Below are positions 10,746 through 43,102 of a stretch of 64,000 nt of DNA, one piece after another. Below the pieces are notes generated by a model, which worked only from the letters and a program-made list of their open reading frames with translations, ran no database searches and was not told the DNA's origin. Numbering within the stretch: the first letter of the stretch is position 1; each line of letters starts with the position of its first letter. Both the position numbers and the translations under genes were made by a program. This stretch comes from Bacillota bacterium (GTDB lineage: Bacteria > Bacillota_I > Bacilli_A > RFN20 > CAG-826): positions 438 to 64,437 of the forward strand of contig JAEWMX010000013.1 in assembly GCA_023393065.1 (NCBI GenBank), given 5' to 3'.

Positions 10746-10748
10746 TGT

Positions 10749-11324: not shown

Positions 11325-11326
11325 AA

Positions 11327-11662: not shown

Positions 11663-11665
11663 GGA

Positions 11666-12383: not shown

Positions 12384-12401
12384 AGGGAAACCCGAGGATT
12401 A

Positions 12402-12716: not shown

Positions 12717-12834
12717 CACAAATACCTCCCTATCTTTTAGATATTTTCCTATTCGCTTAAACGATAGGCCGTCTAGTCCGAAGACATCAGACCTACGTGT
12801 TTCGACCAATAATTAGATGTTGCTTATTAGGCAA

Positions 12835-13977: not shown

Positions 13978-13990
13978 GTGTGAATTCCTC

Positions 13991-14599: not shown

Positions 14600-15812
14600 C
14601 TTCTTCCTCCTTCGGCTCTTCACCGACTTGGTATTTGTTCGCGCTATTTGCGTCGACATAGTTAAGTGATTGGAGACGCTTATCTCCGCCTTCGATTGGC
14701 TCAAGACCTAGTAAACTTCTCGATTCATTTAAAGAGAGGATTCCTAGTCCCATTAGTTTTTCAATCGCACTGACTTTGGTGTTCCATGACGCGTATTGTA
14801 AACGCTCGGAGTAAAAGACAATTTGCTCTCCGTTTTCTAGATTGTTTCTCGTTAAGAGTGCTTTAGAAAAGGTCTCTGAAAAAGCAATAGCGATGCCTTC
14901 AATCGTCCCTTCATAAAATGCGTTATATTCATCCTCGGTGTATTTGTTGTCATAGATTGATTCACTGACACCGAAATAGGTGATGATCTTCTTTTGTAGG
15001 AAAGTGAGCGTCTCACTACTGACGAGTTTGGGATCGACACTTAGCGGTATGTAATCACTTTTAAGGTCGACGGGGACTATTGAAGAATTGCCATTTATCG
15101 TCGCCTCTTTAAGCGCACGATCGAATTCATCCTTCTGTGCTTTTTTATCTTTTTCCGAGAGCAGCCCATTGATTTTTAGTAAGCCTTTAATTTGAAAGCT
15201 ACTTCTGATGGCGTTATCAATTCCCTGGAGCACAGAGTCGTTAATCTTGATGGTCTTTAAGATTGCAGAATGGTCTGAGATTGCTCCACTGCCACCGAAG
15301 ATATCGTTGAGGCCATAGAACCTCCGCATGTGAATGATGGATTCATAGGGCAGAGTATAGGCTCTTCCATCTAGAAAAGAAAAACGGAGGTATAAATCTC
15401 CGCTTGAATCTTTAATCGCCTCGACTGAGTTAGGTTTGATTGGCCATAACTCTTTTAGTTCATAGGTGTTTTCGTCATAAACTGGATAAATGAATGCGTT
15501 ATTGTTTAGATATAAAAGTGTCACCACTCGATAGATAAAATCGTAAGGCGTCATCAATGGATTAGGCTGATATTTTAGTAAATATGCGAGTGTTCCCTTT
15601 TTCTCCACGACTGACGAGTTATCAAGGTTTTTTACATATCGCGGTTTAAGTTTTGCAGCATGAGTTGCGATGCGATCGATACAAATCTTGACGACATCAC
15701 TGGCGTTGATATTGTTGCCAAAATCGTTAAATATATTTAAGGTTGATTGAAAAACTTTTGTGTCGTAATTCATCGGCTCAACGGTTTTCTTTTTTCTTGT
15801 AAATAATCCCAT
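14586..15812 (-). CDS. Portal protein (HK97 family)
   Basis: 408 aa, between terminase and protease. Confidence 0.85.
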   Translation of the reverse strand: MGLFTRKKKTVEPMNYDTKVFQSTLNIFNDFGNNINASDVVKICIDRIATHAAKLKPRYVKNLDNSSVVEKKGTLAYLLKYQPNPLMTPYDFIYRVVTLLYLNNNAFIYPVYDENTYELKELWPIKPNSVEAIKDSSGDLYLRFSFLDGRAYTLPYESIIHMRRFYGLNDIFGGSGAISDHSAILKTIKINDSVLQGIDNAIRSSFQIKGLLKINGLLSEKDKKAQKDEFDRALKEATINGNSSIVPVDLKSDYIPLSVDPKLVSSETLTFLQKKIITYFGVSESIYDNKYTEDEYNAFYEGTIEGIAIAFSETFSKALLTRNNLENGEQIVFYSERLQYASWNTKVSAIEKLMGLGILSLNESRSLLGLEPIEGGDKRLQSLNYVDANSANKYQVGEEPKEEEDVKK

Positions 15813-17693: not shown

Positions 17694-18818
17694 CTACGCT
17701 AATGACCAGTTTTTATTAAGCGCGATATTAAGTTCTTCTTGTGTGCACTTAGCAAGGTTAGCGGCACCCAAAGTGAGCACCTTTGCCCCTGCACCGCCTA
17801 GATCCTTCAATGATTGAAACATCAAGACGATGGATTCTTTTGTTAGGTTTGTGACGTTTGAAAAGTTAGATGAAACATTGAAACTCGTTTGTAGTGTGAT
17901 TTTATTAAGTAAAGGGCAATCTTGAATAGCGTTTGCCGGAATCGCTGAGGTCACTGTGTTAGGAATCCAGACTTCGTTTAATACCGGACAACTTTTAATA
18001 ACAGATGTTCCGCCCGAGAGGGTTTGCAGCCGATCGGGAAGGTATAATTTCGTGAGGTTAGGAATGTTCCAAAAAGCATAGCTGCCTAAAGTCCGTAGGT
18101 TCGATAAAGCTTCAAAGCGGACGATGCCACATCCGCAACTGCCGAGATTATATTTTCCCCATGCATCAATTGACTTTGGAAAGGTGATATCGCCAAGATT
18201 CGCAATTCGGTAGATCGCGTAATCTTCGAGTGTTCTAAGCTGCGATCCTTCTTCAAAAATAATCCCGTTACAACCCGAATCATATAAGATACGGTCTTTA
18301 ATGGTGATGATGCTCGAAGGAATAATTAACTTAAATGCCTGCGCATAGTTTGATAAGAAATAGCTACTAATAAATGACGCGGTGTTTGGAATTTGAAACT
18401 CATCAAAAGTTCCCTCAACTAACTCACGCAGAAGATTTTGTTCTTCTGTGGTCGAGTTGTTTCCTAAATTACCACGCGCAACATTCGCAATTAAAGGTTC
18501 GCTTGCATAGATGTAGTTTGCGGTAATGACACTACTTGCATTGGCGGGTTCATCACAGCAGATAAAGGATATCTCCCACCTTCCTTCCCAGGCAGTGACG
18601 GCTTTGGGAATTTCAAAGGTGTTGTCATGAACGCGATATAGATAGTTGGTGTTTTGATGCGTGAATTTTAAGTAGTGATATTCGCTATCAACCTCTGGAT
18701 CAACGGTGAAGTTTAACTTAACCCGCTTACTCTCTTTGAAAACGGAAATCGTTAGAGGAAACTCGCTTGTAATCAGCTTTCCTGTTTTATCAACGTTGAT
18801 ATTTATTTCATATGCCAT
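17694..18818 (-). CDS. Leucine-rich-repeat (BspA/LRR_5-like) protein with an N-terminal beta domain
   Basis: Repeats of about 23 aa (LRTLEDYAIYRIANLGDITFP / LRTLGSYAFWNIPNLTKLYLP / LNEVWIPNTVTSIP...). Confidence 0.65.
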   Translation of the reverse strand: MAYEININVDKTGKLITSEFPLTISVFKESKRVKLNFTVDPEVDSEYHYLKFTHQNTNYLYRVHDNTFEIPKAVTAWEGRWEISFICCDEPANASSVITANYIYASEPLIANVARGNLGNNSTTEEQNLLRELVEGTFDEFQIPNTASFISSYFLSNYAQAFKLIIPSSIITIKDRILYDSGCNGIIFEEGSQLRTLEDYAIYRIANLGDITFPKSIDAWGKYNLGSCGCGIVRFEALSNLRTLGSYAFWNIPNLTKLYLPDRLQTLSGGTSVIKSCPVLNEVWIPNTVTSAIPANAIQDCPLLNKITLQTSFNVSSNFSNVTNLTKESIVLMFQSLKDLGGAGAKVLTLGAANLAKCTQEELNIALNKNWSLA

Positions 18819-19522: not shown

Positions 19523-19825
19523 TTAACACTCTTGATGAGTCAAATTTCCGTCCCCATCGAAATTTTGTTTGTTCTTATTGAACCGCTTATGCTCTTTGTT
19601 ATGGCAGTCTTTGCATAGCAGTATTAGATTGTCTTGATTTAAAGTTACATTAAGATCATTAACATTACTCGGTGAGACATGGACAATATGGTGAACTTCT
19701 TCTCCAACTCCGCCACATTTCTCGCACCTTCCGTTCGCACTCGTTATCTTGATTAAACGCGCCTGTTGCCAAGCAGAACTTCGATAAAAGCGGTTAATGG
19801 CAGCACAAGTACTAATCATGGACAA
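19523..19825 (-). CDS. HNH endonuclease (packaging-associated)
   Basis: CEKCGG...EVHHIVH...LCKDCHNKEH. Confidence 0.8.
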   Translation of the reverse strand: MSMISTCAAINRFYRSSAWQQARLIKITSANGRCEKCGGVGEEVHHIVHVSPSNVNDLNVTLNQDNLILLCKDCHNKEHKRFNKNKQNFDGDGNLTHQEC

Positions 19826-20933
19826 GCTTTGCTCCTGCCGACAACACTTGAGAAAGTCTGCTTAGCTTTTCCCATGGAAGCTTTAAATCATCTCGACCAA
19901 CATGACCATATTTAGCGAGTTCATAATACTTAACAGATCCGAGACTCAACTCTTCTCTTATACTTCTCGGGCTAAAATTAAACACATTCTTAACTAACTT
20001 TAATAGCTCTTCTTCGTTTACATCTGATGTACCAAAGGTATCTACCGTTAGAGAAATAGGATTAGCGATTCCAATAGCGTACGACACTCCTACTTCACAT
20101 CTATTTGCGAGCCCTGAGGCAACGATATGTTTCGCCACAAACCGACAATAGTATGCGGCAGAGCGGTCGACTTTGCTTGGATCTTTACCCGAGAAAGCAC
20201 CACCGCCATGACGACCAACGCCACCATAGGTGTCACAGATAATCTTACGTCCGGTTAAACCTGAATCAGCATAAGGACCACCAATAACGAATTCTCCGGT
20301 TGGATTAATAAGAATGGAGGTTCTATCACTTATATACTCTGGTGGAATCACATCTTTGATGACTCTTTTTATAATCGGTTCAAAGACACTCCGATCAACC
20401 CCTGGTTTTGTTTGGGCAGATACAACAACGGTTGTCACATGAGATGGAACGCTATCTACATAAGCGACGCTGACTTGGCATTTACCGTCAGGACCGAAGA
20501 CTGAACTGTGAAGGTTCTTTGTAATGCGATCCATTTCGATGGCAATATTCCTTGATAGTTCAATGCTTAGTGGCATCAGTGTGGACGTGTCATTAGAGGC
20601 ATAGCCAAACATGATCCCCTGATCACCCGCGCCATCTTTATCAACACCAAGCGCAATGTCTGGTGATTGTTTGGAGATTAACTCTAATACTTGGAAATGC
20701 TCATGGTAGCCGATATCGTTCAAAACGGATTTAGCAATCTTTGCCGGTTCAATCTTCGCTGTAGTCGTCAGTTCTCCACCAATGACTAAGCAGTTATCTT
20801 TGATAAAACACTCAATTGCGACACGACTTTCTTTATCTACTTCTAAGCAGGCATCGAGAATGGCATCGCTAATTTGATCACAGACTTTATCAGGATGACC
20901 ACGAAAAACAGATTCACTAGTTACAATTTTCAT
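19812..20933 (-). CDS. metK: S-adenosylmethionine synthetase, phage-encoded
   Basis: GHPDKVCDQISD, GAGDQG, GRKIICDTYGG and HGGGAFSGKDPSKVDRS motifs. 373 aa. Confidence 0.9.
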   Translation of the reverse strand: MKIVTSESVFRGHPDKVCDQISDAILDACLEVDKESRVAIECFIKDNCLVIGGELTTTAKIEPAKIAKSVLNDIGYHEHFQVLELISKQSPDIALGVDKDGAGDQGIMFGYASNDTSTLMPLSIELSRNIAIEMDRITKNLHSSVFGPDGKCQVSVAYVDSVPSHVTTVVVSAQTKPGVDRSVFEPIIKRVIKDVIPPEYISDRTSILINPTGEFVIGGPYADSGLTGRKIICDTYGGVGRHGGGAFSGKDPSKVDRSAAYYCRFVAKHIVASGLANRCEVGVSYAIGIANPISLTVDTFGTSDVNEEELLKLVKNVFNFSPRSIREELSLGSVKYYELAKYGHVGRDDLKLPWEKLSRLSQVLSAGAKLVHD

Positions 20934-21457: not shown

Positions 21458-22699
21458 TTAATCTAAGAGCTTTTCACTTTGCTCGACGATATAATCCGGA
21501 ATCGTTGAAAGCGGGATTTTCACACCATCGCGAATGAGAAAACAGCCATCAATACTATTCTTTAATCGACTATATCTTTTAACAATGACATCCACGTAAC
21601 GTTCATCGAGTTCCATCACTAGTGCTTTGCGTTTAAGTTCCTCACAGGCAATTAACGTCGTGCCACTGCCACCGAATAGATCGAGAACTGTTTCACCTTT
21701 TCGGCTTGAGTTATTAATCGCTCGGGCAACTAGTGGGATTGGTTTCATGGTTGGATGCAGGTCATTTGTCTTCGGTTTGTTATATTCCCAGACAGTATCT
21801 TGTGTGCGGTCTTCGGCAAAGTAATGAGTCTCGCCCTCTTTCCATCCATAAAGGATTGGTTCATGCCGCCAATGATAATCTTGTCTCCCAAGCACGAGTG
21901 AGTTTTTAACCCAAACTAGACACTCAGACAGTTTTAATCCAGCACCTTTAAAAGCTGTTCTAAAGTTCAAACCTTCGGTGTCAGCGTGGCAGCAATATAC
22001 GACACCGCCCGGTTTTAAATGCTCGGCCATATTAGTGAACGCTTTTGACAAAAAAGTCAGGAAATCTCCATCTTTTTGCTTATCGTTTTGAATTTTCATC
22101 CCAGTCGAGCCTTCGTAATCTACGTTATATGGCGGATCGGTAAAAATCATATCGACCACTTTTCGATTCACTAAAGCCTTAACGATCTCGGGATCGGTGG
22201 AATCTCCGCACATCACGCGATGTTCATTTAATTCAAAGATGTCACCTTTTTGTGAATATGGATGATCGGTTAATACTTCACTTTCATCAAAGTCATCATC
22301 TTCAGGATCATCACCTAACTTCTTCTGTAATTCCTCAAAACCAAATAGGTCGAGATCTAATTCAATATTGTCAAACTCAATCTTTAATTTATCGAGGTCC
22401 CAGTCGGCAAGTTCCGAAGCACGATTATCCGCTAAACGAAATGCACGAATTTTATCTTCACTTAAGTCATCAGCGATAATGCAAGGAACGTCAGTAATGC
22501 CTAACTTCTTACAAGCCTTGATTCGTGTGTGTCCAGCAATAATGACATTATCTTTTGTGATAATCACCGGGACTTTAAAACCGAATTCCTTGATTGAATT
22601 AGCGACAGCTTCGACAGCTTGATCATTTTTTCTTGGGTTGTTTTCATAAACCTTTAGTTCATCAATATTTTTAATCACTATCTTCAGTTCTTTCGCCAT
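21458..22699 (-). CDS. ParB-N domain fused DNA methyltransferase (N6A/N4C, DPPY type)
   Basis: N-terminal ParB-like region (YENNPRKND...IIAGHTR) and a C-terminal MTase (FTDPPYN, DLFGGSGTT). Confidence 0.85.
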   Translation of the reverse strand: MAKELKIVIKNIDELKVYENNPRKNDQAVEAVANSIKEFGFKVPVIITKDNVIIAGHTRIKACKKLGITDVPCIIADDLSEDKIRAFRLADNRASELADWDLDKLKIEFDNIELDLDLFGFEELQKKLGDDPEDDDFDESEVLTDHPYSQKGDIFELNEHRVMCGDSTDPEIVKALVNRKVVDMIFTDPPYNVDYEGSTGMKIQNDKQKDGDFLTFLSKAFTNMAEHLKPGGVVYCCHADTEGLNFRTAFKGAGLKLSECLVWVKNSLVLGRQDYHWRHEPILYGWKEGETHYFAEDRTQDTVWEYNKPKTNDLHPTMKPIPLVARAINNSSRKGETVLDLFGGSGTTLIACEELKRKALVMELDERYVDVIVKRYSRLKNSIDGCFLIRDGVKIPLSTIPDYIVEQSEKLLD

Positions 22700-32194: not shown

Positions 32195-32227
32195 TACTAC
32201 ACACATTTGGTGTCGTTTTTTGGGGGT
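32195..32227 (-). promoter_or_regulatory. Bipartite conserved motif, copy 2
   Basis: Minus strand: ACCCCCAAAAA-N11-ATGTGTGTAGTA, the same spacing as 3605..3637. It overlaps the 3' end of ORF 32197..32763. Confidence 0.4.
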
Positions 32228-32694
32228 AGTTTTGAAAAGAATTTTTGTAATTTTTTTTGAATTGCTTTAAAACACTCGAAAATAGATGAAACATCAACAC
32301 CTTCGAGTTCAGCGATTTTACATAGGGTGTAGTCTGGGTGCTCTTCTTTAAGCTGATAACGTCTTAGCTGAGTTTCAGTGAGAGATGACAAAAAGGACGA
32401 GATTGTGTCCTCGTCTAGTGTTTCATCATCAACATAGGTATCCGTTGCTTTATCAGGAATGTCTTCAATATCAAGTTCCATTCCTTTATAAAAACGGGCT
32501 CTATGCCTATCGTGTCTCACGTCTTGCGCGTGTTCTTCTTTTAGCGATTGTTCTAAGAAGACGCACCATTCTTCTTGGGGGTCATATTTGACTCTTTGGG
32601 TTGTTCCATCATCAAATTTCCAAGAGAAATAAAGAGGTTTATTAGTTTCTTTGTTGCGCACCAAAAATACGCCTGGATTATCATAGTTTTTCAT
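32197..32694 (-). CDS. Sigma-70 region-4-like HTH protein (early regulator)
   Basis: C-terminus LTETQLRRYQLKEEHPDYTLCKIAELEGVDVSSIFECFKAIQKKL. The start is uncertain (32694 or 32763). Confidence 0.45.
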   Translation of the reverse strand: MKNYDNPGVFLVRNKETNKPLYFSWKFDDGTTQRVKYDPQEEWCVFLEQSLKEEHAQDVRHDRHRARFYKGMELDIEDIPDKATDTYVDDETLDEDTISSFLSSLTETQLRRYQLKEEHPDYTLCKIAELEGVDVSSIFECFKAIQKKLQKFFSKLPPKNDTKCV

Positions 32695-32944
32695 GTTTTT
32701 ACCTTGCTTTCCGCGAGATAAACCCATGAAGAAAACAGCTCTAAAAAGAATGCCTGAATTCAACTAGTGATTAATCTCGCTAATTTTGAATATGCAGACA
32801 ACCTTATAGGTAGGCTGTTTTGCTTTGTGAGAAGCGTCCTATGTAGACGTCATATCACTTCTCGAACAAAGATTAACATTTAGAATAGACCCTGTAAAAA
32901 CAGGTCCTGTCCAGTAAAAAAACCATGATTTTATCGATGTTTTT

Positions 32945-33013
32945 CAATAAAAAAAGAGGTTGCATAATGTCAACCCCTTAATATTTTGATTTAAAATGGA
33001 CAAGTGCTGTCCA
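32945..33013 (-). promoter_or_regulatory. Candidate early promoter/operator region
   Basis: Minus-strand TTGACA at 32973..32968. Palindrome GGACAAGTGCTGTCC at 32999..33013. A second CTGTCCA occurs at 32908..32914. Confidence 0.3.
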
Positions 33014-34915
33014 CTATAATTTATCTCTTGTTAATGGTTTTCCAGTCCTCTTAATTAAAAACTCATTTACCTTTTCTGCTGGGTGCTCCCTAAAGAATGT
33101 TAAAACTGAGCTCAATGAATCATCAAGTTCGTTCCCCGGTACTAGAGTAATTCCAGCTGAAGCCAAAAGTATCCATGCGATTTTAGGTGGAACATTTAGT
33201 CCTCTAATAATTGCAACAACAGTCCTTTTGTCTTTTTCTTTATCGTAATCGGATCTGTACCGACTTATTGTTTTTATACTTACATCGGCATCTTCAGATA
33301 AACTCTGTTCATCGATATCGAGAAACTCCATCAAGATAGTAAGAGCTTCACCAAATTGAACACCGGAAATTTTTGAAATAACACTATTAACATTTTTTTC
33401 GTGCAACTTATGCTTCTTTTGTCCTTCTTCTGTCATTATCAAGGCAGTGTTTTTTTGAAGAGTCAAATCATACTCTACTAATTTTGATCTATCTCTGCAT
33501 AGATAGCACATCATGTCTAAATCAAGAGGAAGGGAATCGTTCTTATATCTGACGGCAAATTTTACTGCACATTCATCAATATGCAATCTAGCATAGTCGG
33601 TAAGTAGTAAAACACCTTTATTGTTTTTAAACACATATCTCGCATCATTTAAAATCAAGTGATTTTCTACGAAAAGAAAACCGCATGTGTTTAAATACGA
33701 GATCAACTCTTGTTTGAGAAGCAATTCTAGAGATAGGTCGTTAACACTAATCGTGAAGGTCTCATTAGCCTTTAAAGAATCTTTATTGAATGCGTATGGT
33801 CTGATATATGAACCGTCAACCCAGTTAAGTACTCCAATTGCTTCAATAATGCCGATATCAATTAATCTTTTCCTTGCTGCATAGCGAGTAACTTTAAAGA
33901 TACTTGATAATTCATCAATAACATATGGTAGTAGGTCAATCACGTTTCCGCCAAACAGACGACCATAATCTTCAATCAGTTGAAATGCCATTTTTTGGAA
34001 CATTTCTACAGGCATTAAAATATAGGGGGCCAATGCATTGGCTTGCATTTCAATTCTCGCTAGAGTGCTTGTTGTATTGGCGTCTATCCCGCCATGTGTT
34101 TTACAACGTATATTCTTTAGACTGCCATCTAAAATTTGAGAAAAAAGAAAGGCCTTATAGTGAAAATAAGAATGGACACATTCATGTACCACTGTCATAT
34201 TTCTAGATCCAAAAGAATATAGAAAATTTACCTGGTCATCAATTAAAATCGTATTTGCATTTACTTTTATTGAGCGCTTATTGTTGTCTGAATCGAAAAT
34301 ATCCGTATCGGAATCCGCAAAAAAGAATTGGCCAAATATTGAAGAGTCGTCAGTGATTTCAACTGGTACGATGGTAAGTCCCATTCTATTAGCCAATAAA
34401 TCTACGTCAATTGGCATCGGAGTAGCAAGGGCTTCGGGATAAAACTTTTCAAGGATATCATTTGCATAAGAATCAAAATTACTCTTGTCCATAAACGGAA
34501 TAAAGTCACCTGTTAATGGACTATCGAGTTTTGTTTTATTACCATCATATTCGGCTATTGAGTTAATTACGAAATCTTTGAACTTATTCTTAAGGTCGCT
34601 CGTGCAAGAAACTTTAAACCAAACTCTGGCTGAACAGTCTTCGTGATCGTGTCTTTTTCCACACACCCCAACGCAATCTAAATCAACCTCAAGAAGAACA
34701 TCAAAATCAATTACTGAAGGTCCCACTCCATTAATTCGGACAGATTTAAAATTAAGGTAGGCTTCATTCACCTCATTAACGAAATGGAATCCGAAGTCAT
34801 TGATGTGCTCCAGGACCATTTTTCGATTTGAATTACAGTGTTTTAATATCTTATCATGGATATATAGGCCTATGTCGCTGTTTTCTATATATTCGAGAAA
34901 GGTGTTCTTCGTCAT
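33014..34915 (-). CDS. Large ImmA/IrrE-like HExxH metallopeptidase with a C-terminal HTH domain
   Basis: HECVHSYFH motif and a C-terminal HTH-like segment (DADVSIKTISRYRSD). ATG at 34915 forms ATGA with the stop of the upstream gene. Confidence 0.65.
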   Translation of the reverse strand: MTKNTFLEYIENSDIGLYIHDKILKHCNSNRKMVLEHINDFGFHFVNEVNEAYLNFKSVRINGVGPSVIDFDVLLEVDLDCVGVCGKRHDHEDCSARVWFKVSCTSDLKNKFKDFVINSIAEYDGNKTKLDSPLTGDFIPFMDKSNFDSYANDILEKFYPEALATPMPIDVDLLANRMGLTIVPVEITDDSSIFGQFFFADSDTDIFDSDNNKRSIKVNANTILIDDQVNFLYSFGSRNMTVVHECVHSYFHYKAFLFSQILDGSLKNIRCKTHGGIDANTTSTLARIEMQANALAPYILMPVEMFQKMAFQLIEDYGRLFGGNVIDLLPYVIDELSSIFKVTRYAARKRLIDIGIIEAIGVLNWVDGSYIRPYAFNKDSLKANETFTISVNDLSLELLLKQELISYLNTCGFLFVENHLILNDARYVFKNNKGVLLLTDYARLHIDECAVKFAVRYKNDSLPLDLDMMCYLCRDRSKLVEYDLTLQKNTALIMTEEGQKKHKLHEKNVNSVISKISGVQFGEALTILMEFLDIDEQSLSEDADVSIKTISRYRSDYDKEKDKRTVVAIIRGLNVPPKIAWILLASAGITLVPGNELDDSLSSVLTFFREHPAEKVNEFLIKRTGKPLTRDKL

Positions 34916-35673
34916 TCTGAACTTGTGCCTTTCTTTATGTGAAATTTTATATTGTTCTTTTGGCAGAAATCTGAAACGAAGGAAGCGCACTCATTAAAGA
35001 ATTCTTTATATCCTTTGTATTCGCTTACTTGTTTGTTATAGTGAAGCCTTCCAAAAACTATGTAATCAACAAAAGAAATGCTGTTTAAAATATCTTTTAA
35101 ATCTTGATCGCAGATATTAGGGGTTGGATAAGGCTCGATGCTAACCCATGTGTAAAAACCGGCGTCGTGTAGTTTTTTGAGTGCTTTAATTCGTTCCTGG
35201 TATGAAGGAGTGAAAGGTTCATATTTCTTCCGAAAATTCTCATCAAGAGAAACTAGGGTAATTCCATACTCGTTTATTTTTTTGGTGTTAAGAAGTTCGT
35301 CTGGAAGAATACTTTTTGTGAGTATCACCACCTTAATATTTTCTTTGTTTAATCTATTGATTATTTTTAGACTAAGGTCCCCAACCTCTGGGTAGTCGAC
35401 CATAAAAGGATCTGTTGTAAATGAAAGTTGAACCGATTTGATTTGCTTTTTGTATCTAGGAAGTTCTTTTTCCAATAACTCCATAGCGTTCGATACAATC
35501 TTCGGTTCAATCCATTCTTTATAGGATTTAACATTACCGAACCTCCTCGCCATATTAAAAGCATAGCAAGGGTATGTACATCCGTGCGCGCATCCTTTCA
35601 CATGATTAATTGTAAAATCACCATATTCAACTTCTGTTCTATATAGAAGAGTTTTCTTTGTTGTTGAGTTCAT
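34912..35673 (-). CDS. Three-Cys-motif radical-SAM/SPL(SplB)-like protein
   Basis: GCAHGCTYPCYA (CX3CX3C), SFTTDPF and a TIM-barrel-like alternation. Start is ATG 35673 or TTG 35679. Confidence 0.65.
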   Translation of the reverse strand: MNSTTKKTLLYRTEVEYGDFTINHVKGCAHGCTYPCYAFNMARRFGNVKSYKEWIEPKIVSNAMELLEKELPRYKKQIKSVQLSFTTDPFMVDYPEVGDLSLKIINRLNKENIKVVILTKSILPDELLNTKKINEYGITLVSLDENFRKKYEPFTPSYQERIKALKKLHDAGFYTWVSIEPYPTPNICDQDLKDILNSISFVDYIVFGRLHYNKQVSEYKGYKEFFNECASFVSDFCQKNNIKFHIKKGTSSE

Positions 35674-35675
35674 AA

Positions 35676-36872
35676 TCAATTATCCTTTTGTAGTACTATA
35701 TACTTGTCCTCTGTATAATTTGCAGCTTTGACATAACCGACTTTTCTTATTTTTTTAGCATCAATAAGCGGTCTGATAACGTTTCTAATAATGTGTCCTT
35801 TTTTCATAAAAGTGTTTTGTAAACAAATTACTTCAATATTTTCGAATGAAAGTTCTTTTCCAATTTCGCTAAGAATAGCAGGCGACACCTTCTCAAGCTC
35901 TGCGACAAAGGCTTCTTCTTCTGGAGTGCGATTAAACAAATTCAGCTCATTTGCATCTGACTCTTTTTGAGAAACGCAATATTCGTTAGTTGGTCCTAAG
36001 GCTTTCCAGGTTGCTTCTTTAACCTTTCTTAAACCCTCAATGTTTGGAGTAAGATAGATCAAATAATACAAGGTTACGTTCATCTCGTTTTTCATCTTAA
36101 CATAATAGCGGAATTTCATGTGAGTTCCGTCTATTAGTTTGTTTGCTAAACAATCTCTTAGTTGCTCTGCTCTAACATAGGAATCATTTTCATCGAAACA
36201 ACAAAAATTATGTATTAACTCTCCGATTTCTTCCCTATATTTTGTACATTTTGGATTATTAACGTTCCTAGTATAATCGTTGCAAAAAAAGTTAATAATC
36301 AGCTCACAGTATATGGACTTAATGAAATCTTTAATTGCGACAGCCTGATTATATTTGATTAAATTGTATGGATCGACATACAGTAGAACACTTTTATTAG
36401 TTCCATATACAAATTGAAAATGGTACTCACTCTTAATAGTGGTTATAAAATCACAGGCTTCTTTGCAGTAAACTTTTAGATGAACATTAGAAATGTTTTC
36501 TTCTTTGAATTTATCTATGTATATATTAAAAATTTCCTGCATGGTGGATACTTTTTGTGCATCGTAATCGTTTGAAATTAAGAAAAAATTTATATCAGGA
36601 TGATAAAGAGAAAATTTAACAAATGTGTTTAAAACCTCAATGCTGGTTGAGAGATCACCGCTTTCATAAATTCCCGCATTGCTCATTGCATCAATAAAAA
36701 ATATATATTTAGAAACGTGACTCACAACATAAAGCCAATGCTCCACATATTTTCTTATATACTCAATTTTTTTAACAGTATGGGTTTTGATGAATTCGCC
36801 GTACGAAAACTCAGCCTTCCTGTTTTCAAGAAGTTCTTTGATTTCGTTAAAAGAATAACCTTCAAATCCCAT
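35676..36872 (-). CDS. TcmP-like (three-Cys-motif partner) protein
   Basis: 398 aa. The N-terminus HTVKKIEYIRKYVEHWLYV...FIDAMSNAGIY recalls the TcmP family from memory. It sits adjacent to the three-Cys protein. Confidence 0.5.
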   Translation of the reverse strand: MGFEGYSFNEIKELLENRKAEFSYGEFIKTHTVKKIEYIRKYVEHWLYVVSHVSKYIFFIDAMSNAGIYESGDLSTSIEVLNTFVKFSLYHPDINFFLISNDYDAQKVSTMQEIFNIYIDKFKEENISNVHLKVYCKEACDFITTIKSEYHFQFVYGTNKSVLLYVDPYNLIKYNQAVAIKDFIKSIYCELIINFFCNDYTRNVNNPKCTKYREEIGELIHNFCCFDENDSYVRAEQLRDCLANKLIDGTHMKFRYYVKMKNEMNVTLYYLIYLTPNIEGLRKVKEATWKALGPTNEYCVSQKESDANELNLFNRTPEEEAFVAELEKVSPAILSEIGKELSFENIEVICLQNTFMKKGHIIRNVIRPLIDAKKIRKVGYVKAANYTEDKYIVLQKDN

Positions 36873-36941: not shown

Positions 36942-39900
36942 TTATTCACCTATTCCAAAGAATCTCTCAAAGAATGTAATAATCTTGATCATGACTCTTT
37001 GTTTTTTTTCTGCTCTATTGCTACCACCAAATCTTGAGATGGGTGGCATAATCTTATCGAGGTCGGTTCCGTTAGTTTTAACATAGCCATCTTTAAGGCA
37101 ATTTGAAATGAATTCTCTTGTTGCGGAATCTTTGAGGCCTTCGCCTTCAACAAGTTCTTTAATCTCTTTTTCTTTTTCTTCAGCGATATACGCATGCCAA
37201 TTCGCCATGACATCATCAACTTCATTAATTCCAGACAAGAAGTTTTGAATAAGCTCGCGTTTGCTTCTTAATTCAGGAGATGCATCCATTGCCTTTTGAA
37301 TCGCGACGATAATCTCACGATCCTTACGGTGGGTATCATGGTATTTTTTAACAAGCATTAAGATGTAATCGATATTTACTTCGATTTGCTTAATGAGTTC
37401 GATCTCAAAAACGATGTCGTCATTGATGTTTCTAAGCTCTCCCTGAGCAGAGGATGGTCTTAAATCAAGATATCTAGAAACGTAATCTTGTAAATCAATG
37501 TCGGAGATAAGCTCTTTTCCAACAAAGTCATCGAAGGATGCTAGTAGGTTCTTTAATCTTAAGATGACACCGAAGAGTTTCAGGAAGTTCCTTTGATTTT
37601 CTTCGCCTTCAATTCGTGGATCAGAGAGGGGATATTTTTCTAATAGTTCTTCGACGAGCTCCCCATAACCTTTATGGTACTTACCTTCGTTATCGGTGTA
37701 CCCGTTGTAGTAATCATTAAAGCCTCTTAGTAAGACTATGCCTGTCGCATCTCTATCGCCAAATAAGGATATCGATTCATCAACTTTCTTTTGAAGAGGT
37801 CTAAAACAGATAATATTTCCGAAAGTTTTGATTGAGTTAAGGATCCGGTTTGTTCTTGAGAAAGCCTGCATTAAACCATGCATCTTAAGGTTCTTATCAA
37901 CCCAAAGAGTATTTAAAGTCGTGGCATCAAAGCCAGTAAGGAACATGTTCACGACGATAAGCAAATCAATCTCTTTATTCTTCATTCTTAAAGAGAGGTC
38001 GCGATAATAGTTCTGGAATCCTTCCCCTTCAGTTGAAAAGTTTGTACGGAACATTTCGTTGTAATCTTTGATTGAAGCTTCAAGAAAATCACGTGAGGAC
38101 TGATCGAGTCTAGAAGTATCTTCTGGGTTTTCTTCATCGATAATGCCATCGATCTCGTCTTCGTTCGCCCCATACGAATAAATGATGGCAACCTTGAGTT
38201 TCTTGGCATCTGGAAGTTCTTTGATCTGTTTCTTGAATTCAGCATAGTAGAGTTTAGCAGAGGATATGGAAGCTGTCGCAAAAATAGAGTTAAACCCACT
38301 GAGGCGAATCTTTTCTCTTACTTCTTCTTTGCCTTTAAGCACGTCATGGACATTCGATATCACACTTTGGCTATAAGTCTTCTCATTACGATATGTCTTT
38401 TGATTATAGTGATCAAGAATGTATTGAGTGACTAAGGAGATTCTTTGAGGAGCATTAAACGCTGCTTCTCGGTCAATATCTTTAACCTTTTCATCTTCGA
38501 TTGCGTCATCTTGATCCATCGTCTTAATGTAATCGACTCTGAAAGGGAGAACGTTTCGATCGTTAATGGCGTCAATAACTGTATAAACATGCAGTTGATC
38601 ACCAAAAGCCTGTGAAGTTGTCTTTAAATGAGGATTCCCACCCGTGGAGGAATTAACACTAAAGATTGGAGTCCCAGTGAATCCGAAAATATAGTATTTA
38701 TTAAAGTTTTTGATAATGGCAGTGTGCATGTCGCCAAATTGGCTACGATGGCATTCATCAAAGATGAGCACTATTTTTTTATCAAAGACTGGATGTATCT
38801 TATTTTGCTCGATGAAGATAGAGAGCTTTTGAATGGTAGTAATAATGATTGTGCTATTTGGATCTTCAAGTTGCCTCTTTAAAACCGCTGTGGAGGTATT
38901 AGAGTTTGCTGCACCTTTTTCAAAACGATCATATTCGCGCATGGTTTGATAGTCGAGGTCTTTTCTATCAACAACGAATAACACCTTATCAATATACGGA
39001 AGTTTTGAGGTGAGTCGAGCAGCTTTAAAGGAGGTGAGGGTTTTGCCACTACCCGTTGTATGCCAGACGTATCCGCCAGCTTTAATGGAGCCAAACCATT
39101 TATAGTTCGTTGCCACTTCAATTCGGTTAAGCATTCTTTCCGTTGCAGCGATTTGATAGGGCCGCATCACGAGCAGTTTTTCTTCGGCAGTGTAGACACA
39201 GTATTTAGTAAGAATGTTTAATAAAGTGTGCTTCGAAAAGAATGTCCTAGTGAAGTCAATTAAATCCGGAATGGTCTTGTTCTTCGCATCTGCCCAGAAA
39301 GAAGTGAATTCAAAGGTATTGCTCGTTTTATCTGTCTTTTGCGTTTTATTAATATCTTTAACGTGGGAGAAACGAGTGGTATTCGAATAATACTTCGTAT
39401 GAGTTCCGTTAGAGATAACAAAAATTTGGACGAATTCGAATAAACCACTGCCAGCCCAAAAGCTGTCTCTCTGATATCTGTTTATTTGATTGAAGGCTTC
39501 TTTAATAGCTACACCGCGTCTTTTAAGCTCGACATGAACTAGCGGTAGACCATTAACCAAAATGGTGACGTCATAGCGGTTCTTATAGGTTCCGTCGCTC
39601 ACTTCATATTGGTTAATGACTTGGAGTTTATTGTTATGGATGTTGACCTTATCGATCAACTTAATGTTCTTTGTTTCACCATTATCTCTCTTTAGCGGGA
39701 AGATGTGGTTTTCTTGAATGATCTCTGTCTTTTCTTTGATTCCGGCGTTAGGTTTACAAAGACAGTTATTAAAGATTTGCTTCCATTCGTTATCGGATAA
39801 TTGATAGTCATTGAGAAGTGATAATTGTTTTCTTAGGTTATCAATCAAATTCTTTTCTTCGCGAATCAAAATGAACTCGTAAGATTGTTCTCCGAGCATG

Positions 39901-40022
39901 CGAATAAACTCTTTTTCAAGAGCAGCTTCGCTTTGATAAGCATCAGAACGAGAAGTGATCGGCTTATATTCCGTCACTACTGTTTCTTCATTTGATTGAG
40001 AAATAACCGTATATTGAGCCAT
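36942..40022 (-). CDS. hsdR: Type I restriction enzyme R subunit
   Basis: 1026 aa. HTTGSGKT Walker A and FDECHRSQ (DEAH box). Confidence 0.9.
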   Translation of the reverse strand: MAQYTVISQSNEETVVTEYKPITSRSDAYQSEAALEKEFIRMLGEQSYEFILIREEKNLIDNLRKQLSLLNDYQLSDNEWKQIFNNCLCKPNAGIKEKTEIIQENHIFPLKRDNGETKNIKLIDKVNIHNNKLQVINQYEVSDGTYKNRYDVTILVNGLPLVHVELKRRGVAIKEAFNQINRYQRDSFWAGSGLFEFVQIFVISNGTHTKYYSNTTRFSHVKDINKTQKTDKTSNTFEFTSFWADAKNKTIPDLIDFTRTFFSKHTLLNILTKYCVYTAEEKLLVMRPYQIAATERMLNRIEVATNYKWFGSIKAGGYVWHTTGSGKTLTSFKAARLTSKLPYIDKVLFVVDRKDLDYQTMREYDRFEKGAANSNTSTAVLKRQLEDPNSTIIITTIQKLSIFIEQNKIHPVFDKKIVLIFDECHRSQFGDMHTAIIKNFNKYYIFGFTGTPIFSVNSSTGGNPHLKTTSQAFGDQLHVYTVIDAINDRNVLPFRVDYIKTMDQDDAIEDEKVKDIDREAAFNAPQRISLVTQYILDHYNQKTYRNEKTYSQSVISNVHDVLKGKEEVREKIRLSGFNSIFATASISSAKLYYAEFKKQIKELPDAKKLKVAIIYSYGANEDEIDGIIDEENPEDTSRLDQSSRDFLEASIKDYNEMFRTNFSTEGEGFQNYYRDLSLRMKNKEIDLLIVVNMFLTGFDATTLNTLWVDKNLKMHGLMQAFSRTNRILNSIKTFGNIICFRPLQKKVDESISLFGDRDATGIVLLRGFNDYYNGYTDNEGKYHKGYGELVEELLEKYPLSDPRIEGEENQRNFLKLFGVILRLKNLLASFDDFVGKELISDIDLQDYVSRYLDLRPSSAQGELRNINDDIVFEIELIKQIEVNIDYILMLVKKYHDTHRKDREIIVAIQKAMDASPELRSKRELIQNFLSGINEVDDVMANWHAYIAEEKEKEIKELVEGEGLKDSATREFISNCLKDGYVKTNGTDLDKIMPPISRFGGSNRAEKKQRVMIKIITFFERFFGIGE

Positions 40023-41233
40023 TATCCCTGTAACTCCTTGAATGTCAATAGTTTATCGCGATAGTATTCGTACTGTTTTTGACGGGCGGCGATTTCAGCG
40101 GGAAGGCCTATTGAGAAATCGTTACAATATGCGGCAAATTTATCAAGAATATCCACTATGGTTTGTTGTTCTTTGAGAGATGGCAAGGGTATGACTATAT
40201 TGGATATAGCCGGAACGCTAGAATGGACAACTTTGCTTTTCACTTTTCCTTTTCCTTTTTGATTAACTGCGTCTTTTGTTGACAATGCATAGGATAAATA
40301 TTTTGCATTTTGGTTATGCCGTAAAACAACAATATCACCCCCAACATAACCATCTTCATCTCCGACATAGGCGGTTGTCTTTGCAATATCCTCAATATTT
40401 TCTCCGGTAATAGCAAATAATACGTCGTTCTTCTTTAGTGTCTTAGGATTTGCTATTAAGTCTTTTTTGGTGTGGGAAATACATTGTGAAAAATGGACAC
40501 CGTATGAAGTGTAAATTTCACCATAACGAATACAAGGAACACCTTCGGCAGTTACCTCGTCTCGCTTAATCCCGTTACCTCTAAACATGGTTGTTGCTAT
40601 TTGAGATAATTTGACCCTAGGATAAGAAGCGTTCGATATAAGCTCGTCCCTATAATACTCATACTGCTTCTTCCTGGCTGTAAGCTCTGCTGTAAGCTCT
40701 GCTGTAAGCTCTGTGAAATTGTCCAGAATTCGTACAATTTCATATTGAACCTCGATAGGTGGGATGGGGATAATTAATCCTTTAATATCATCATTGCTTA
40801 AGTTTTTTACAGATCCGCCGTTTAGTCCAGTGATTAATGTTTCTATGGAATTGCATAAAACGTAATATAAATATTTATTCAAAATTGAATTCATAGGGGT
40901 GAACATTCCAACGCGTTGATTTAAATAACAAATATTTTTTGAGTTATTTATTCCTACTTTAATTGTCCCACTCATACCAATAACAATCTTTTGAGGGTAT
41001 ATGATATATTTGTCTAAATTTTCAATATAATAACCTGGATTAAAATATTCCATATTTTCAAATGATATTTCGTTTCCTTGAATGTTGGTTGTTCTACAAA
41101 TTGGAAGACCTTCCGTCAGGAATAAAGATGATTTAAATGCAAATCCTGTAATAAAATCTGATACTTCTCCTAACTTTCTATATTCCACCCCGTTAGGGCA
41201 TAACTCTTGAATGAGTTCTTCTAACTTACTCAT
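40022..41233 (-). CDS. hsdS: Type I R-M specificity subunit (IC-like)
   Basis: Two TRDs separated by the conserved ILDNFTELTAELTAELTARKKQYEYYRD, with a C-terminal ILDKF...ARQKQYEYYRDKLLTF. Confidence 0.9.
   Translation of the reverse strand: MSKLEELIQELCPNGVEYRKLGEVSDFITGFAFKSSLFLTEGLPICRTTNIQGNEISFENMEYFNPGYYIENLDKYIIYPQKIVIGMSGTIKVGINNSKNICYLNQRVGMFTPMNSILNKYLYYVLCNSIETLITGLNGGSVKNLSNDDIKGLIIPIPPIEVQYEIVRILDNFTELTAELTAELTARKKQYEYYRDELISNASYPRVKLSQIATTMFRGNGIKRDEVTAEGVPCIRYGEIYTSYGVHFSQCISHTKKDLIANPKTLKKNDVLFAITGENIEDIAKTTAYVGDEDGYVGGDIVVLRHNQNAKYLSYALSTKDAVNQKGKGKVKSKVVHSSVPAISNIVIPLPSLKEQQTIVDILDKFAAYCNDFSIGLPAEIAARQKQYEYYRDKLLTFKELQG
40677..40712 (-). repeat. 12-bp tandem repeat x3 (GCTGTAAGCTCT) encoding (TAEL)n in the HsdS central spacer
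   Basis: Three exact units at 40677, 40689 and 40701. Confidence 0.95.
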
Positions 41234-41235: not shown

Positions 41236-42789
41236 TTAACCTTCGATTTCCGTAACTATCTTAGAAATCTCTTCACGGAGCATATTTTCTTTTTTAACTA
41301 TCTCCTCAATTTCAGCATTAAGCTTAATAATGTTGATTTTTTCTCTAGTGTCTTCTTGTTCTACATATGTCGAAACAGAAAGGTTATATTCACTTTCTTT
41401 AACTTCCTCAAATGATGAAACTTTAACCATATGATTCTTATCTTTTCTATCAGTATAAAACTTAACAATATTAGCAATGTTTTCGTCAGTCAGCTTATTG
41501 TTATTGGTTACTTTCACACATTCTCTAGATGCATCAATGAATATGACGTTCGTATCTAACTTATTCTTCTTTAAAACCATGATACTTGTCGCAATTGAGG
41601 TGCCAAAGAATAAATTGTTCGGAAGTTGAATAATACAATCAACAAAGTTATTGTCTACTAAGTACTTTCTAATTTTTTGTTCTGCTCCACCTCGATACAT
41701 AATCCCCGGGAAACAGACAATTGCAGCAGCCCCGTTCGTTTTTAGCCATGATAAAGTATGCATGATAAAGGCCATGTCTGCTTTTCCTTTAGGAGCAAGG
41801 ACACCAGCAGGAGCAAATCGCGGATCGTTAATTAATAGAGAATTTGAATCACCCGCCCACTTAATTGAGTAAGGTGGATTTGAGACAATGACTTCAAAGG
41901 GTTCATCATTCCAATGTTCGGGTGAGATAAGAGTGTCTTCACAGGCAATGTTAAAATTATCAAAACCTACGCCATGTAGGAACATGTTAATTCTGCACAG
42001 ATTATAGTTTGTGATATTAATTTCTTGGCCGAAGTAGCCTCTTCTTACTTTTCCTTCACCAAGTACTTTATGAGCCTTTAATAGTAATGAACCTGAGCCA
42101 CATGCAGGATCGTAGACCCCATCAACTTCAGTCTTTCCAACTGTTGCGAGCCTCATAAGTAGTTCTGAAACTTCTTGAGGAGTGAAAAATTCTCCGCCAC
42201 TTTTACCCGCATTTGATGCATACATCGACATCAAATACTCATAAGCATCACCAAAAGCATCAGTCTTATTGTTAGTAGTATAGGTGAGATTCATATCGCC
42301 GATGCCATTCAGAATTTTTACTAATTTTTCATTCCGTTTAGCTACAGTTGACCCGAGCTTATTTGAGTTCACATCGATATCATCGAATAAACCACTGAAG
42401 TCGCTTTCGCTACTTGTTCCGGTGGCTGATTCCTCAATGTGCTTAAATACCTTTTCTAATGTCTCATTAAGATTCTCGTCATTTGGCGCTTTCTTTCTAA
42501 CGTTACTAAATAACTCGCTTGGGAGAATAAAAAAACCTACAGCATTCACCATTTCATCTCTAATTGATTCAGCTTCTTTATCAGATAAATTGGCATACGA
42601 AAAATTCGAGTTTCCACTATCGTGTTCGTTCTTATTAATATACTTTTCTAGGTGTTCAGAGATGTAGCGATAAAACATGATTCCTAAAATGTATTGTTTA
42701 AAATCCCAGCCATCAACACTTCCACGAAGATCGTCGGCAATGGCCCAAATAGCACGGTGTAATTCTTCCCTCTCTTTATTAGCAGGCAT
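41236..42789 (-). CDS. hsdM: Type I R-M N6-adenine methyltransferase subunit
   Basis: [11 protein letters not shown] and [10 protein letters not shown] motifs. 517 aa. Confidence 0.9.
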
Positions 42790-42839: not shown

Positions 42840-42875
42840 ATTTTACCACAAAAATGACGATTTGTTTATTACTTT
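42840..42875 (-). promoter_or_regulatory. Candidate hsdM promoter (extended -10)
   Basis: Minus strand: TGGTAAAAT (-10 at 42845..42840) and a weak -35 TAAACA 17 nt upstream. Confidence 0.4.
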
Positions 42876-42876
42876 T

Positions 42877-42970
42877 TGGCACTATGCACGTCATCGTGCC
42901 ATAATTTAATGTTGCCGTGCCACAATTGACATAGCCGTGCCACAATTGAATGAAGCGTGCCACCTATTGG
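42877..42970 (-). repeat. Array of CGTGCCA half-sites: one inverted pair plus direct repeats at 20-21 bp spacing
   Basis: GTGCCA at 42896, 42917, 42937 and 42957. Inverted TGGCAC at 42877. Exact 16-mer GCCGTGCCACAATTGA at 42914 and 42934. Confidence 0.9.
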
Positions 42971-43056
42971 CATTGAAAACAAATAAATGTACCATTTTCA
43001 GCTTTTTTATAACGCTAATATAAAGAGGCAATATTCAAAAAATATCGATTGAATGT

Positions 43057-43089
43057 AAATAAAAAGGACTGACACAATTGTATCAATCC
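43057..43089 (-). terminator. Rho-independent terminator of tRNA-Trp
   Basis: Minus strand: GGATTGATAC-aatt-GTGTCAGTCC (with G.U pairs) followed by TTTTTATTT. Confidence 0.6.
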
Positions 43090-43102
43090 TGACCATTCTA
43101 GA

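Follow-up and report, generated by a model that had tools for sequence, protein, structure and literature searches.

Three co-directional, tightly packed genes in the AT-richer arm of a prophage, directly downstream of a Type I restriction-modification (R-M) system, raise the question of whether they form one system or share little more than their position. The genes lie at positions 33,014 to 36,872 of a 64,000-nucleotide (nt) stretch of Bacillota bacterium DNA (contig JAEWMX010000013.1, assembly GCA_023393065.1), which was analysed as a whole and is called the window here. Gene 1 encodes a TcmP protein, gene 2 its radical S-adenosylmethionine (SAM) partner and gene 3 a larger protein with a predicted peptidase and a predicted helix-turn-helix (HTH) domain. 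The original prediction, made from the sequence of the window, was that the three constitute an uncharacterised DNA-modification or defence module whose output is controlled by gene 3 acting as a protease-repressor. Our analysis leads us to favour, with slightly better than even confidence, an arrangement of two separate things side by side, namely a TcmP/radical-SAM cassette and the phage's own regulator. The pair, we infer, is most likely a SAM-dependent nucleic-acid modification module that is expressed from the lysogen together with the Type I R-M system.

Linkage and divergence of genes 1 and 2

The packing of the three open reading frames (ORFs) is as first described and was read directly from the sequence. 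At the junction of genes 1 and 2 (...GATAATTGATTATGAAC) the TcmP stop codon TGA is followed by TT and then by ATG 35673, and at the junction of genes 2 and 3 (...TCAGAATGACGAAG) the radical-SAM stop overlaps the start of gene 3 as ATGA. The motifs GCAHGCTYPCYA (CX3CX3C), SFTTDPF and HECVHSYFH were all found in the window proteins. The longest ORF of gene 2 is 34912..35679(-), with 255 aa read from TTG, and alignment of homologues favours ATG 35673 as the start, giving 253 aa. For gene 3 the longest ORF is 33014..34990(-), with 658 aa read from GTG, and the start at ATG 34915 is backed by a recorded identical protein of 633 aa (P0028) and by homologues of 630-640 aa.

A scan of one genome per GTDB species returned 119 loci with relatives of the window subfamily of TcmP, mostly in metagenome-assembled genomes (MAGs) of gut Clostridia and Bacilli. 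IMG/VR added 35 TcmP loci, and dereplication at 90% TcmP identity left 78 representatives. A radical-SAM gene lies immediately 3' of TcmP in 71 of these 78 loci, at a distance of less than 400 nt in 66 of them and with a second TcmP paralogue in between in the remaining 5; two of the 7 exceptions are contig ends. As a reciprocal test, IMG/VR was searched with the radical-SAM protein and the neighbouring ORFs of the 68 loci obtained, which were not dereplicated, were examined with a broad TcmP hidden Markov model (HMM). An ORF matching this model was present directly upstream and on the same strand in 64 of the 68 viral loci, and two such ORFs were present in 14. Genes 1 and 2 are a near-obligate two-gene cassette.

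The two members of this cassette evolve at different rates. Compared with the window copies, TcmP homologues show a median identity of 29% and radical-SAM homologues one of 58%, and at one locus (L129) the radical-SAM protein is 72% identical while TcmP is only about 19% identical, yet scores 126 bits on the TcmP model TIGR04474; all of the diverged TcmP copies tested were above the cutoff of that model. The divergence rate of TcmP is thus about double that of the radical-SAM enzyme, a pattern that suggests a conserved catalyst with a partner that diverges fast. When 1.84 billion representative proteins were searched with a profile, TcmP relatives numbered 2087 at E ≤ 1e-3 and 121 at E ≤ 1e-30, which points to a family that is real but modest in size. 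Among phages, tblastn with TcmP matched Gordonia phages alone, at low identity, which is no proof of absence from related phages because copies of 25% identity miss the E-value limit in a large database. Since this search is blind to diverged copies, the conserved radical-SAM protein was used to check related phages.

Two variants of the cassette differ from the window in composition. In L110 (IMG/VR UViG_2788500514_000004, 7645-15783) and similar loci, a small XRE/C-protein-like gene comes first and is followed in turn by TcmP1, TcmP2, a CX3CX3C radical-SAM gene and Type III Mod/Res; TcmP1 (379 aa) carries the derived motif I described below, and TcmP2 (289 aa) a canonical DAFAGTG loop. The L110 operon is divergent from a gene 3 homologue that lies 58 nt away. 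In L011 (7001-8569) a TcmP homologue (P0023) is fused to a C-terminal double-stranded RNA (dsRNA)-binding domain, PF00035, and has no adjacent radical-SAM gene; it is located beside AbiH and a C5 methyltransferase/AAA_5 pair. The fusion is a hint that RNA binding, or action without a partner, may occur in some TcmP proteins.

Gene 3 and the prophage backbone

The third protein had been described as an ImmA/IrrE-type HExxH peptidase with a C-terminal HTH, and both parts of that description were borne out. The protein exceeds the Pfam cutoff for Peptidase_M78 (PF06114; 23.5 bits, cutoff 22), and residues H244, E245, H248, H252 and E289, which include the HExxH motif and a downstream Glu, are invariant in 35 homologues. 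HTH_3 is below threshold in the window copy (15.3 bits, residues ~537-577), and HTH_3 or HTH_26 is on record for several homologues. In a structural model with a predicted local distance difference test (pLDDT) score of 84.7, the HTH gave local matches to the XRE-type domains of ImmR, DdrO, 434 Cro, P22 c2 and C.BclI (probability 1.0, template modelling (TM) score relative to target ~0.8). Whole-chain Foldseek of the same model found nothing significant in the PDB, so that only the local HTH matches were usable, and N-terminal matches of NTF2/VirB8-like type were too weak for use. The domain order is an N-terminal alpha/beta domain, the ImmA/IrrE M78 domain with HExxH, a beta-rich middle and the C-terminal XRE-type HTH.

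These features relate gene 3 to ImmR/ImmA of ICEBs1, DdrO/IrrE of Deinococcus and CapH/CapP of CBASS, with which it shares an M78 domain; the DNA-binding domains of ImmR and DdrO superpose with its HTH, and CapP is matched weakly (PADLOC capP, 9.2e-6). Unlike those systems, gene 3 holds both predicted functions in one 633-aa chain, has its HTH at the C-terminus along with two extra domains, and is conserved in the phage backbone beside the replication module rather than tied to one defence system. Ten small prophage ORFs were also tested, and no further protein with an XRE-type HTH emerged among them. Our best guess, from its domains and from its position at the junction with the early genes, is that gene 3 may be a single-chain repressor/protease switch of the early genes.

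Where gene 3 homologues occur is informative. The protein matches phrog_4031 over its full length (1e-122), its homologues form more than 100 clusters, and tblastn located them in 46 GenBank phages, comprising S. suis phi-SsUD.1-like prophages and 'Ca. Heliusvirales' gut phages. None of these 46 records was among the matches to the well-conserved radical-SAM protein. In the GenBank phages gene 3 stands between variable cargo (tet(W), methyltransferases, restriction genes) and replication genes; a 272-aa gene 5' of the homologue in phage NatCom_21982 was considered and is not a radical-SAM enzyme. Among the best 80 of 181 IMG/VR loci with gene 3, DUF2800 is found 3' of it in 61, PolA in 55 and SSB in 53, and a radical-SAM gene adjoins it in 3, counting the phage of the window itself. 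Gene 3 belongs to the backbone of Heliusvirales-like prophages and not to the pair.

This distribution bears directly on the proposal that the trio is one system, in which the protease-repressor would sense a signal and control the TcmP/radical-SAM output in the manner of ImmR/ImmA or CapH/CapP. Several observations speak for such a unit: the ATGA overlap in the window and an 8-nt overlap in L007; recurrence of the co-directional arrangement with diverged copies of gene 3 (65% in L007/L008, 48% in L129, 34% in L016); a divergent gene 3 homologue upstream in 23 of the 68 radical-SAM-seeded viral loci; the weak capP match; and the HELVH peptidase and HTH genes that adjoin a TcmP/DUF5131 pair in Gordonia phage Easley. 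However, the conserved co-occurrence expected of a dedicated regulator of this type is not seen for gene 3. No gene 3 homologue is present in 63 of the 70 non-self representative pair loci, the other 7 having it co-directional and downstream (2) or divergent and upstream (5), and of 61 sets of genes downstream of the pair, only 3 contain Peptidase_M78. Conversely, 77 of the 80 best gene 3 loci lack a radical-SAM gene, although the replication module follows in 61. In the viral set, gene 3 is near 26 of the 68 loci, 23 times divergent and 3 times co-directional, so its orientation relative to the pair is variable; related phages hold other cargo in the same slot (tet(W), R-M genes, methyltransferases), and the L110-type loci have a separate small XRE gene leading their TcmP operon. 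We therefore regard a single three-gene system as distinctly unlikely, and this part of the original prediction was not supported.

The reading that we prefer, a cassette placed next to a phage regulator, accounts for the trio by position: the arrangement arises because the pair sits in a cargo slot 5' of gene 3, and variable orientation fits such a slot rather than an operonic partnership. On the simplest reading, the region 5' of gene 3 is a prophage-end cargo slot, the pair is recurrent cargo in either orientation, and the ATGA overlap is compaction in a shared transcript rather than a dedicated partnership. Some regulatory interplay between gene 3 and the pair may nevertheless occur. The check on neighbourhood conservation that had been suggested thus gave a divided answer, with genes 1 and 2 linked in both directions and R-M genes as their commonest neighbours, but with gene 3 not co-conserved.

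The TcmP and radical-SAM proteins

The assignment of gene 1 to the TcmP family was confirmed by a match to TIGR04474 of 71.4 bits (cutoff 53, E = 1.1e-19) that covers profile positions 2-262 of 263, and PADLOC PDC-M30A is also matched (2.6e-14). No Pfam family was found for this protein, nor any methyltransferase family even at E up to 1, and a TcmP profile search against PDB sequences gave no relevant match. An AlphaFold (AF2) model was constructed from 25 homologues (pLDDT 91.7), and all of its significant Foldseek matches in the PDB and BFVD are class-I SAM-dependent methyltransferases, among them 2f8l (lmo1582), RlmJ (6qe5), PacII M and CamA. On this model, TcmP has a class-I methyltransferase fold, and the helix-strand pattern of its last 80 residues, typical of a winged helix, suggests such a domain at the C-terminus. 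The TM scores are 0.3-0.5, which makes the kinship distant.

Conserved positions in the TcmP alignment are a motif-I-like FIDxMSNAG loop (FIDAMSNAG in the window), N101-D102 at the end of strand 2, D138, and D167-P168-Y169 after strand 4, where motif IV of the window protein is DPY (VDPYN). Motif I of the window subfamily is D61-A-M63-S-N65-A-G67, with M63, N65 and G67 invariant, and the canonical DxFxGxG / GxGxG loop is absent here; the canonical glycine loop is present in TcmP2 of L110, in L129 TcmP and in Easley gp39. TcmP shares the class-I Rossmann fold with amino-methyltransferases that carry (D/N)PP(Y/F), such as RlmJ and the gamma-class N6-adenine DNA methyltransferases, and the acidic residue ending strand 2 and the DPY after strand 4 match their layout. 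It differs from them in being very distant (~10% identity, with no Pfam or PDB sequence match), in having one proline in DPY rather than DPPY, and in the non-canonical glycine loop of the window subfamily.

The best single TM match of TcmP is the rRNA m6A methyltransferase RlmJ (0.51 relative to target), which raises the possibility that the pair acts on tRNA or rRNA, or makes a modified nucleotide, as a toxin-like or viperin-like effector. The TcmP homologue fused to the dsRNA-binding domain points the same way, as does a faint match between the radical-SAM protein and pVip (PADLOC, E = 0.007). The fusion, however, is a single cluster and lacks a radical-SAM partner, by HMM the radical-SAM protein is closest to the SPL/PA0069/Rv2578c ('DNA repair photolyase') group and not to viperins, and DNA methylation and restriction dominate the gene context. 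An RNA substrate or a nucleotide product thus seems quite unlikely to us, and we continue to prefer a module that modifies nucleic acid, most probably DNA.

Gene 2 had been placed among radical-SAM enzymes in the neighbourhood of SPL, and this placement was sustained. It passes Pfam Radical_SAM (PF04055; 54.9 bits, cutoff 29.5, residues 24-200) and falls just under the cutoffs of DUF5131 (PF07505; 27.8 against 28.9 bits) and SPL (PF20903; 26.4 against 27). The closest radical-SAM families by HMM are SPL and the COG1533 group (PA0069, Rv2578c and 'radical SAM mobile pair protein B', TIGR04470), but all scores are far below the family cutoffs of NCBIfam (PA0069, 68.6 of 360 bits; Rv2578c, 58.1 of 430; mobile-pair-B, 47.5 of 410; SPL, TIGR04070, 29.2 of 400). 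Gene 2 also differs from these families in its shorter length (253 aa), in its Cys spacing and in its obligate partner with a methyltransferase fold. It matches phrog_13321 (1.9e-26) and, weakly, PADLOC PDC-M41B (2.2e-6) and PDC-M30B (1.2e-5). With Peptidase_M78 in gene 3, the HMM searches that had been proposed thus recovered TcmP, Radical_SAM and the peptidase, and left HTH_3 short of its threshold in the window copy.

The atypical Cys cluster that had been noticed in gene 2 proved to be a property of its whole family: the motif GCxHGCx[YF]PCYA (CX3CX3C, with an invariant Pro) is present in 71 of 71 representative partners, and the canonical CX3CX2C motif of radical-SAM enzymes is absent from gene 2 and from all 71. 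Comparison by hhalign of the gene 2 family with the classical DUF5131 protein of Gordonia phage Easley, whose Cys spacing is CX6CX2C rather than CX3CX3C, aligned only the N-terminal Cys region, at 50% probability, and we consider the match weak. By sequence, the N-terminus of gene 2 resembles DUF5131 and its core resembles SPL/PA0069-type enzymes. RadicalSAM.org places DUF5131, SPL and MJ0683-like enzymes in one megacluster 5 (PMC9477430), which fits an intermediate position of gene 2 between DUF5131 and SPL. A search of PDB sequences with the radical-SAM family profile gave no relevant match and no solved SPL structure, and the plasmid collection held remote radical-SAM relatives only. Two other leads were set aside: Ophion, a defence system with a radical-SAM enzyme, is viperin-related and has other partners, and was for that reason discarded as a relative, and the only mention of 'CX3CX3C' that was found, in a NifB review, concerns a different family.

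The likeness to SPL also suggests a repair function, in which the radical-SAM protein would be an SPL-like lyase that removes a lesion, for example a side-product of a methyltransferase, and TcmP would recognise that lesion. Similarity to SPL and to COG1533-type families is present but weak, and DNA methyltransferases are frequent neighbours. Every SPL-family threshold was nevertheless missed, by a wide margin in NCBIfam, the Cys spacing is unlike that of SPL, the profile search found no solved SPL structure, and a mobile, patchy spread through defence islands together with a fast-evolving partner is atypical of repair. We consider lesion removal highly improbable as the role of the pair, and return to modification as the preferred reading.

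Genomic context and proposed function

For the two upstream and two downstream genes at ~61-65 representative loci, components of R-M systems were the most frequent Pfam families. Upstream, the counts were ResIII 9, N6_N4_Mtase 5, RE_endonuc 5, Eco57I 4, N6_Mtase 4, DNA_methylase 3, MmeI_Mtase 3 and GmrSD_N 2; downstream they were N6_N4_Mtase 8, ResIII 6, SWI2_SNF2 5, DUF488 4 and GmrSD 2. The pair stands mostly beside or inside R-M operons (types I, II, III, IIG and IV) and at lysogeny-expressed prophage ends. It lies at the end of or within a Type I operon in the window and in L016, with DpnII/Bsp6I and a C5 methyltransferase in L007, with C5 methyltransferases and McrBC in L129, and with MTaX1 and a C5 methyltransferase in L004; other loci adjoin genes for reverse transcriptases, AAA_21/RloB, TIR and AbiH. 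Bacterial genome contigs carry 56 of the 71 representative pair loci.

An independent TcmP pair is found in Gordonia phage Easley (L208, 3344-7816, MH155867.1), where an immunity repressor is followed by TcmP (187 bits, annotated 'methyltransferase'), a convergent classical DUF5131 gene (GCDRVSAGCDHCYA), a HELVH peptidase, an HTH protein and a tyrosine integrase. Its place in a lysogeny-expressed prophage region near immunity regulators fits prophage-borne accessory genes. The lysogeny-expressed position is argued from this locus, in which TcmP is directly 3' of the immunity repressor, and from the window, which lacks a terminator-like site between hsdR and TcmP and has one right after gene 3.

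The pair is not a new discovery of kind, because its family is already catalogued (TIGR04474; PDC-M30/M41). The PDC entries of PADLOC, described by their authors as untested 'phage defence candidates', were drawn from genes that lie within Type I R-M, BREX and DISARM systems (bioRxiv 10.1101/2024.01.29.577857); PDC-M30 and PDC-M41 share one common B family with two different A families and have 104 and 75 occurrences, respectively. The R-M adjacency in the window is the same setting in which such pairs were flagged, and the locus agrees with these entries in a gene 1 above the TIGR04474 cutoff that hits PDC-M30A, a three-Cys protein next to it and a Type I R-M system beside it. It differs in that the partner misses PF07505 yet passes Radical_SAM, has CX3CX3C spacing rather than the CX6CX2C of the classical Easley partner and matches PDC-M30B/M41B weakly, and in that the TcmP subfamily has the derived motif I DxMxNxG. 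What is distinctive here is a radical-SAM-proper partner with an invariant CX3CX3C, combined with a derived TcmP motif I. A search of the literature on TcmP, DUF5131, PDC-M30, SPL-like defence enzymes, CX3CX3C and COG1533 found no functional study, in agreement with the earlier statement that no published function was known for the pair. The description as a candidate uncharacterised module accordingly stands for genes 1 and 2, but neither for the trio as a unit nor for a family outside the catalogues.

In the mechanism that we propose, TcmP and the radical-SAM enzyme would form a single complex that works on nucleic acid, most likely DNA. The fast-evolving TcmP would serve as the subunit for recognition or base handling, and possibly also as an N-methyltransferase, and the radical-SAM enzyme would be the conserved catalyst that directs a 5'-deoxyadenosyl radical at the presented base. 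The resulting covalent mark or lesion would be used for R-M-like defence or for protecting the lysogen epigenetically. Gene 3 would be a repressor or switch of the early genes that has a protease built in, and would share its transcript with any cargo found 5' of it, in this case hsdMSR and the pair, from a promoter near 42868 to the terminator at 32979-32954.

The presence of the pair on phage genomes suggests another use of the same chemistry, namely counter-defence, in which the pair would modify the phage's own DNA during replication against host restriction, as orphan methyltransferases and hypermodification pathways do. The phage lineage commonly has DNA methyltransferases and SAM synthetase, interpreted as anti-restriction (PMC11283538), the window prophage has MetK and a ParB-methyltransferase, and TcmP has a methyltransferase fold. 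But most representative loci (56 of 71) are on bacterial contigs among restriction endonucleases, GmrSD, reverse transcriptases, AbiH and TIR, the prophage pairs are at the lysogeny-expressed end or by an immunity repressor and not in replication or late modules, and the window pair appears to be in one operon with an entire Type I R-M system, HsdR included. Counter-defence seems to us unlikely. A more far-reaching form of the preferred modification module is a self-contained antiviral or epigenetic system with new radical-based chemistry on DNA (or RNA), in which a diversifying TcmP would pick the target and the highly conserved radical-SAM enzyme, with its non-canonical cluster motif, would act on it, alongside or as a back-up to SAM-dependent R-M; this we put forward tentatively, as a possibility and not as an expectation.

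Several points weigh against the interpretation of the locus as a modification cassette beside a phage regulator. The pair lacks a dedicated nuclease, which leaves the R-M-like logic incomplete, and biochemical or genetic data on family members were not found in the literature searched. The structural likeness of TcmP to methyltransferases is distant, and the derived motif I (DxMxNxG) of the window subfamily has N in place of the first loop G, so that SAM binding or methyl transfer may be altered or lost. An RNA substrate is possible in view of the RlmJ match and of the dsRNA-binding fusion found without a radical-SAM neighbour. As for gene 3, its putative repressor role is deduced from domains and position, and 7 of 70 representative and 26 of 68 viral loci of the pair do have it nearby.

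The interest of the pair lies in the fact that it has an NCBIfam model and a PADLOC candidate entry, yet the functional studies searched do not address it. The methyltransferase fold of TcmP, the true radical-SAM partner with CX3CX3C that one sub-lineage has, the near-obligate linkage and the embedding in R-M systems and prophages provide testable handles, and the divergence of TcmP relative to the radical-SAM enzyme resembles that of specificity subunits. If the pair does modify or damage nucleic acid, it would represent new radical-SAM chemistry in bacterial immunity or epigenetics. Gene 3 is of interest in its own right, as a widespread 630-aa protease-HTH protein that flags where cargo inserts in an abundant lineage of gut phages and that could plausibly act as a lysogeny switch.

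Transcription unit and prophage surroundings

The Type I R-M system upstream of the pair, whose presence had been part of the original prediction, is complete, with co-directional HsdM, HsdS and HsdR and Pfam domains for all three subunits (Table 1). GC content is 0.33-0.39 over 33-43 kb, as compared with 0.40-0.42 in the phage backbone and 0.43-0.48 in the host, in agreement with the AT-richer arm described earlier. Only 69 nt separate the end of HsdR from the start of TcmP, and a terminator scan of this spacer found no terminator-like site. Consensus scans for promoters and terminators are consistent with one transcription unit from hsdM to gene 3: the promoter-like site 5' of hsdM is a possible start of a six-gene unit hsdMSR-tcmP-rSAM-gene 3, and the hairpin past gene 3 is its probable end. 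The two copies of a 20-nt element 3' of gene 3, at a spacing of exactly 100 nt, flank the terminator-like hairpin and the region 5' of the early genes. They overlap palindromes of the form TGGACA-N5-TGTCCA and are candidate operators for the gene 3 HTH.

Table 1. Coordinates of genes and sequence features in the window (position 1 is its first letter).
Feature	Position	Strand	Length	Description
Gene 1, TcmP protein	35676..36872	-	398 aa	Modelled class-I SAM-methyltransferase fold, then C-terminal winged-helix-like pattern
Gene 2, radical-SAM partner	34912..35673	-	253 aa	Read from ATG 35673
Gene 3, phage backbone regulator (putative)	33014..34915	-	633 aa	Read from ATG 34915
HsdR, Type I R-M	36942..40022	-		HSDR_N, SWI2_SNF2, T1R_D3-like and EcoR124_C domains
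HsdS specificity subunit, Type I R-M	40022..41233	-		Methylase_S, two stretches
HsdM methyltransferase subunit, Type I R-M	41236..42789	-		N6_Mtase (3.5e-112), HsdM_N
Promoter-like site 5' of hsdM	42840..42868	-		TAAACA-17-TAAAAT with TG extension; consensus match alone
Terminator-like hairpin and T-run	32954..32979	-		35 nt past gene 3 stop; 9-pair stem, then TTTTTATT
Two copies of 20-nt element	32900-32919, 33000-33019	.	20 nt each	ACAGGTCCTGTCCAGTAAAA and ACAAGTGCTGTCCACTATAA; direct repeat D2, inverted repeats I1, I4
Two large serine recombinases, adjacent and overlapping	142-1707, 1697-3004	-		Resolvase, Recombinase and Zn_ribbon_recom
BspA-type leucine-rich-repeat protein (LRR_5)	17694-18818	-		Inside prophage, between TerL and MetK region
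SAM synthetase MetK; ParB-N-terminal/N6_N4 DNA methyltransferase fusion	19812-20933, 21458-22699	-		MetK with all three Pfam domains
ORF just 3' of gene 3	32197-32763	-	188 aa	Weak YlxM/p13-like HTH match, E = 0.0055
Strong terminator-like hairpin after host yqeY-like gene	43065-43090	-		11 pairs and T-run

The prophage genes in the window include serine recombinases, TerL, SAM synthetase, a ParB-methyltransferase, D5-type primase, PolA, Enc34-like SSB and DUF2800. Host genes (YqeY, TrkH, TrkA) were recognised from 43191 onward, and the host/prophage junction is likely at ~42870 to 43060; the left attachment site is probably beyond the window. By gene content the prophage appears typical of the Heliusvirales-like temperate gut phages: it shares PolA, DUF2800, Enc34-like SSB, D5 primase, TerL, MetK and DNA methyltransferases, a set typical of Ca. 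Heliusvirales (PMC11283538), and its gene 3 has homologues in phages so classified and in the S. suis phi-SsUD.1-like prophages. It differs from them in its host, an Acholeplasmataceae MAG according to the NCBI naming of an identical TcmP protein, and in its nucleotide sequence, for which megablast of the region found no match among GenBank phages.

The pair of serine recombinases is at the opposite end of the prophage from the cargo arm. MetK, which is reported in 58.9% of Ca. Heliusvirales genomes (PMC11283538), constitutes a phage-borne SAM supply that shares the element with three SAM-using cargo functions, the Type I R-M system, TcmP and the radical-SAM enzyme. The 188-aa ORF just 3' of gene 3 may be an early-gene regulator and is kept in few related phages (3 of 80 loci). 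LRR_5 proteins like the one encoded between TerL and the MetK region are also found near the TcmP/radical-SAM pair at two other loci, L009 and L010.

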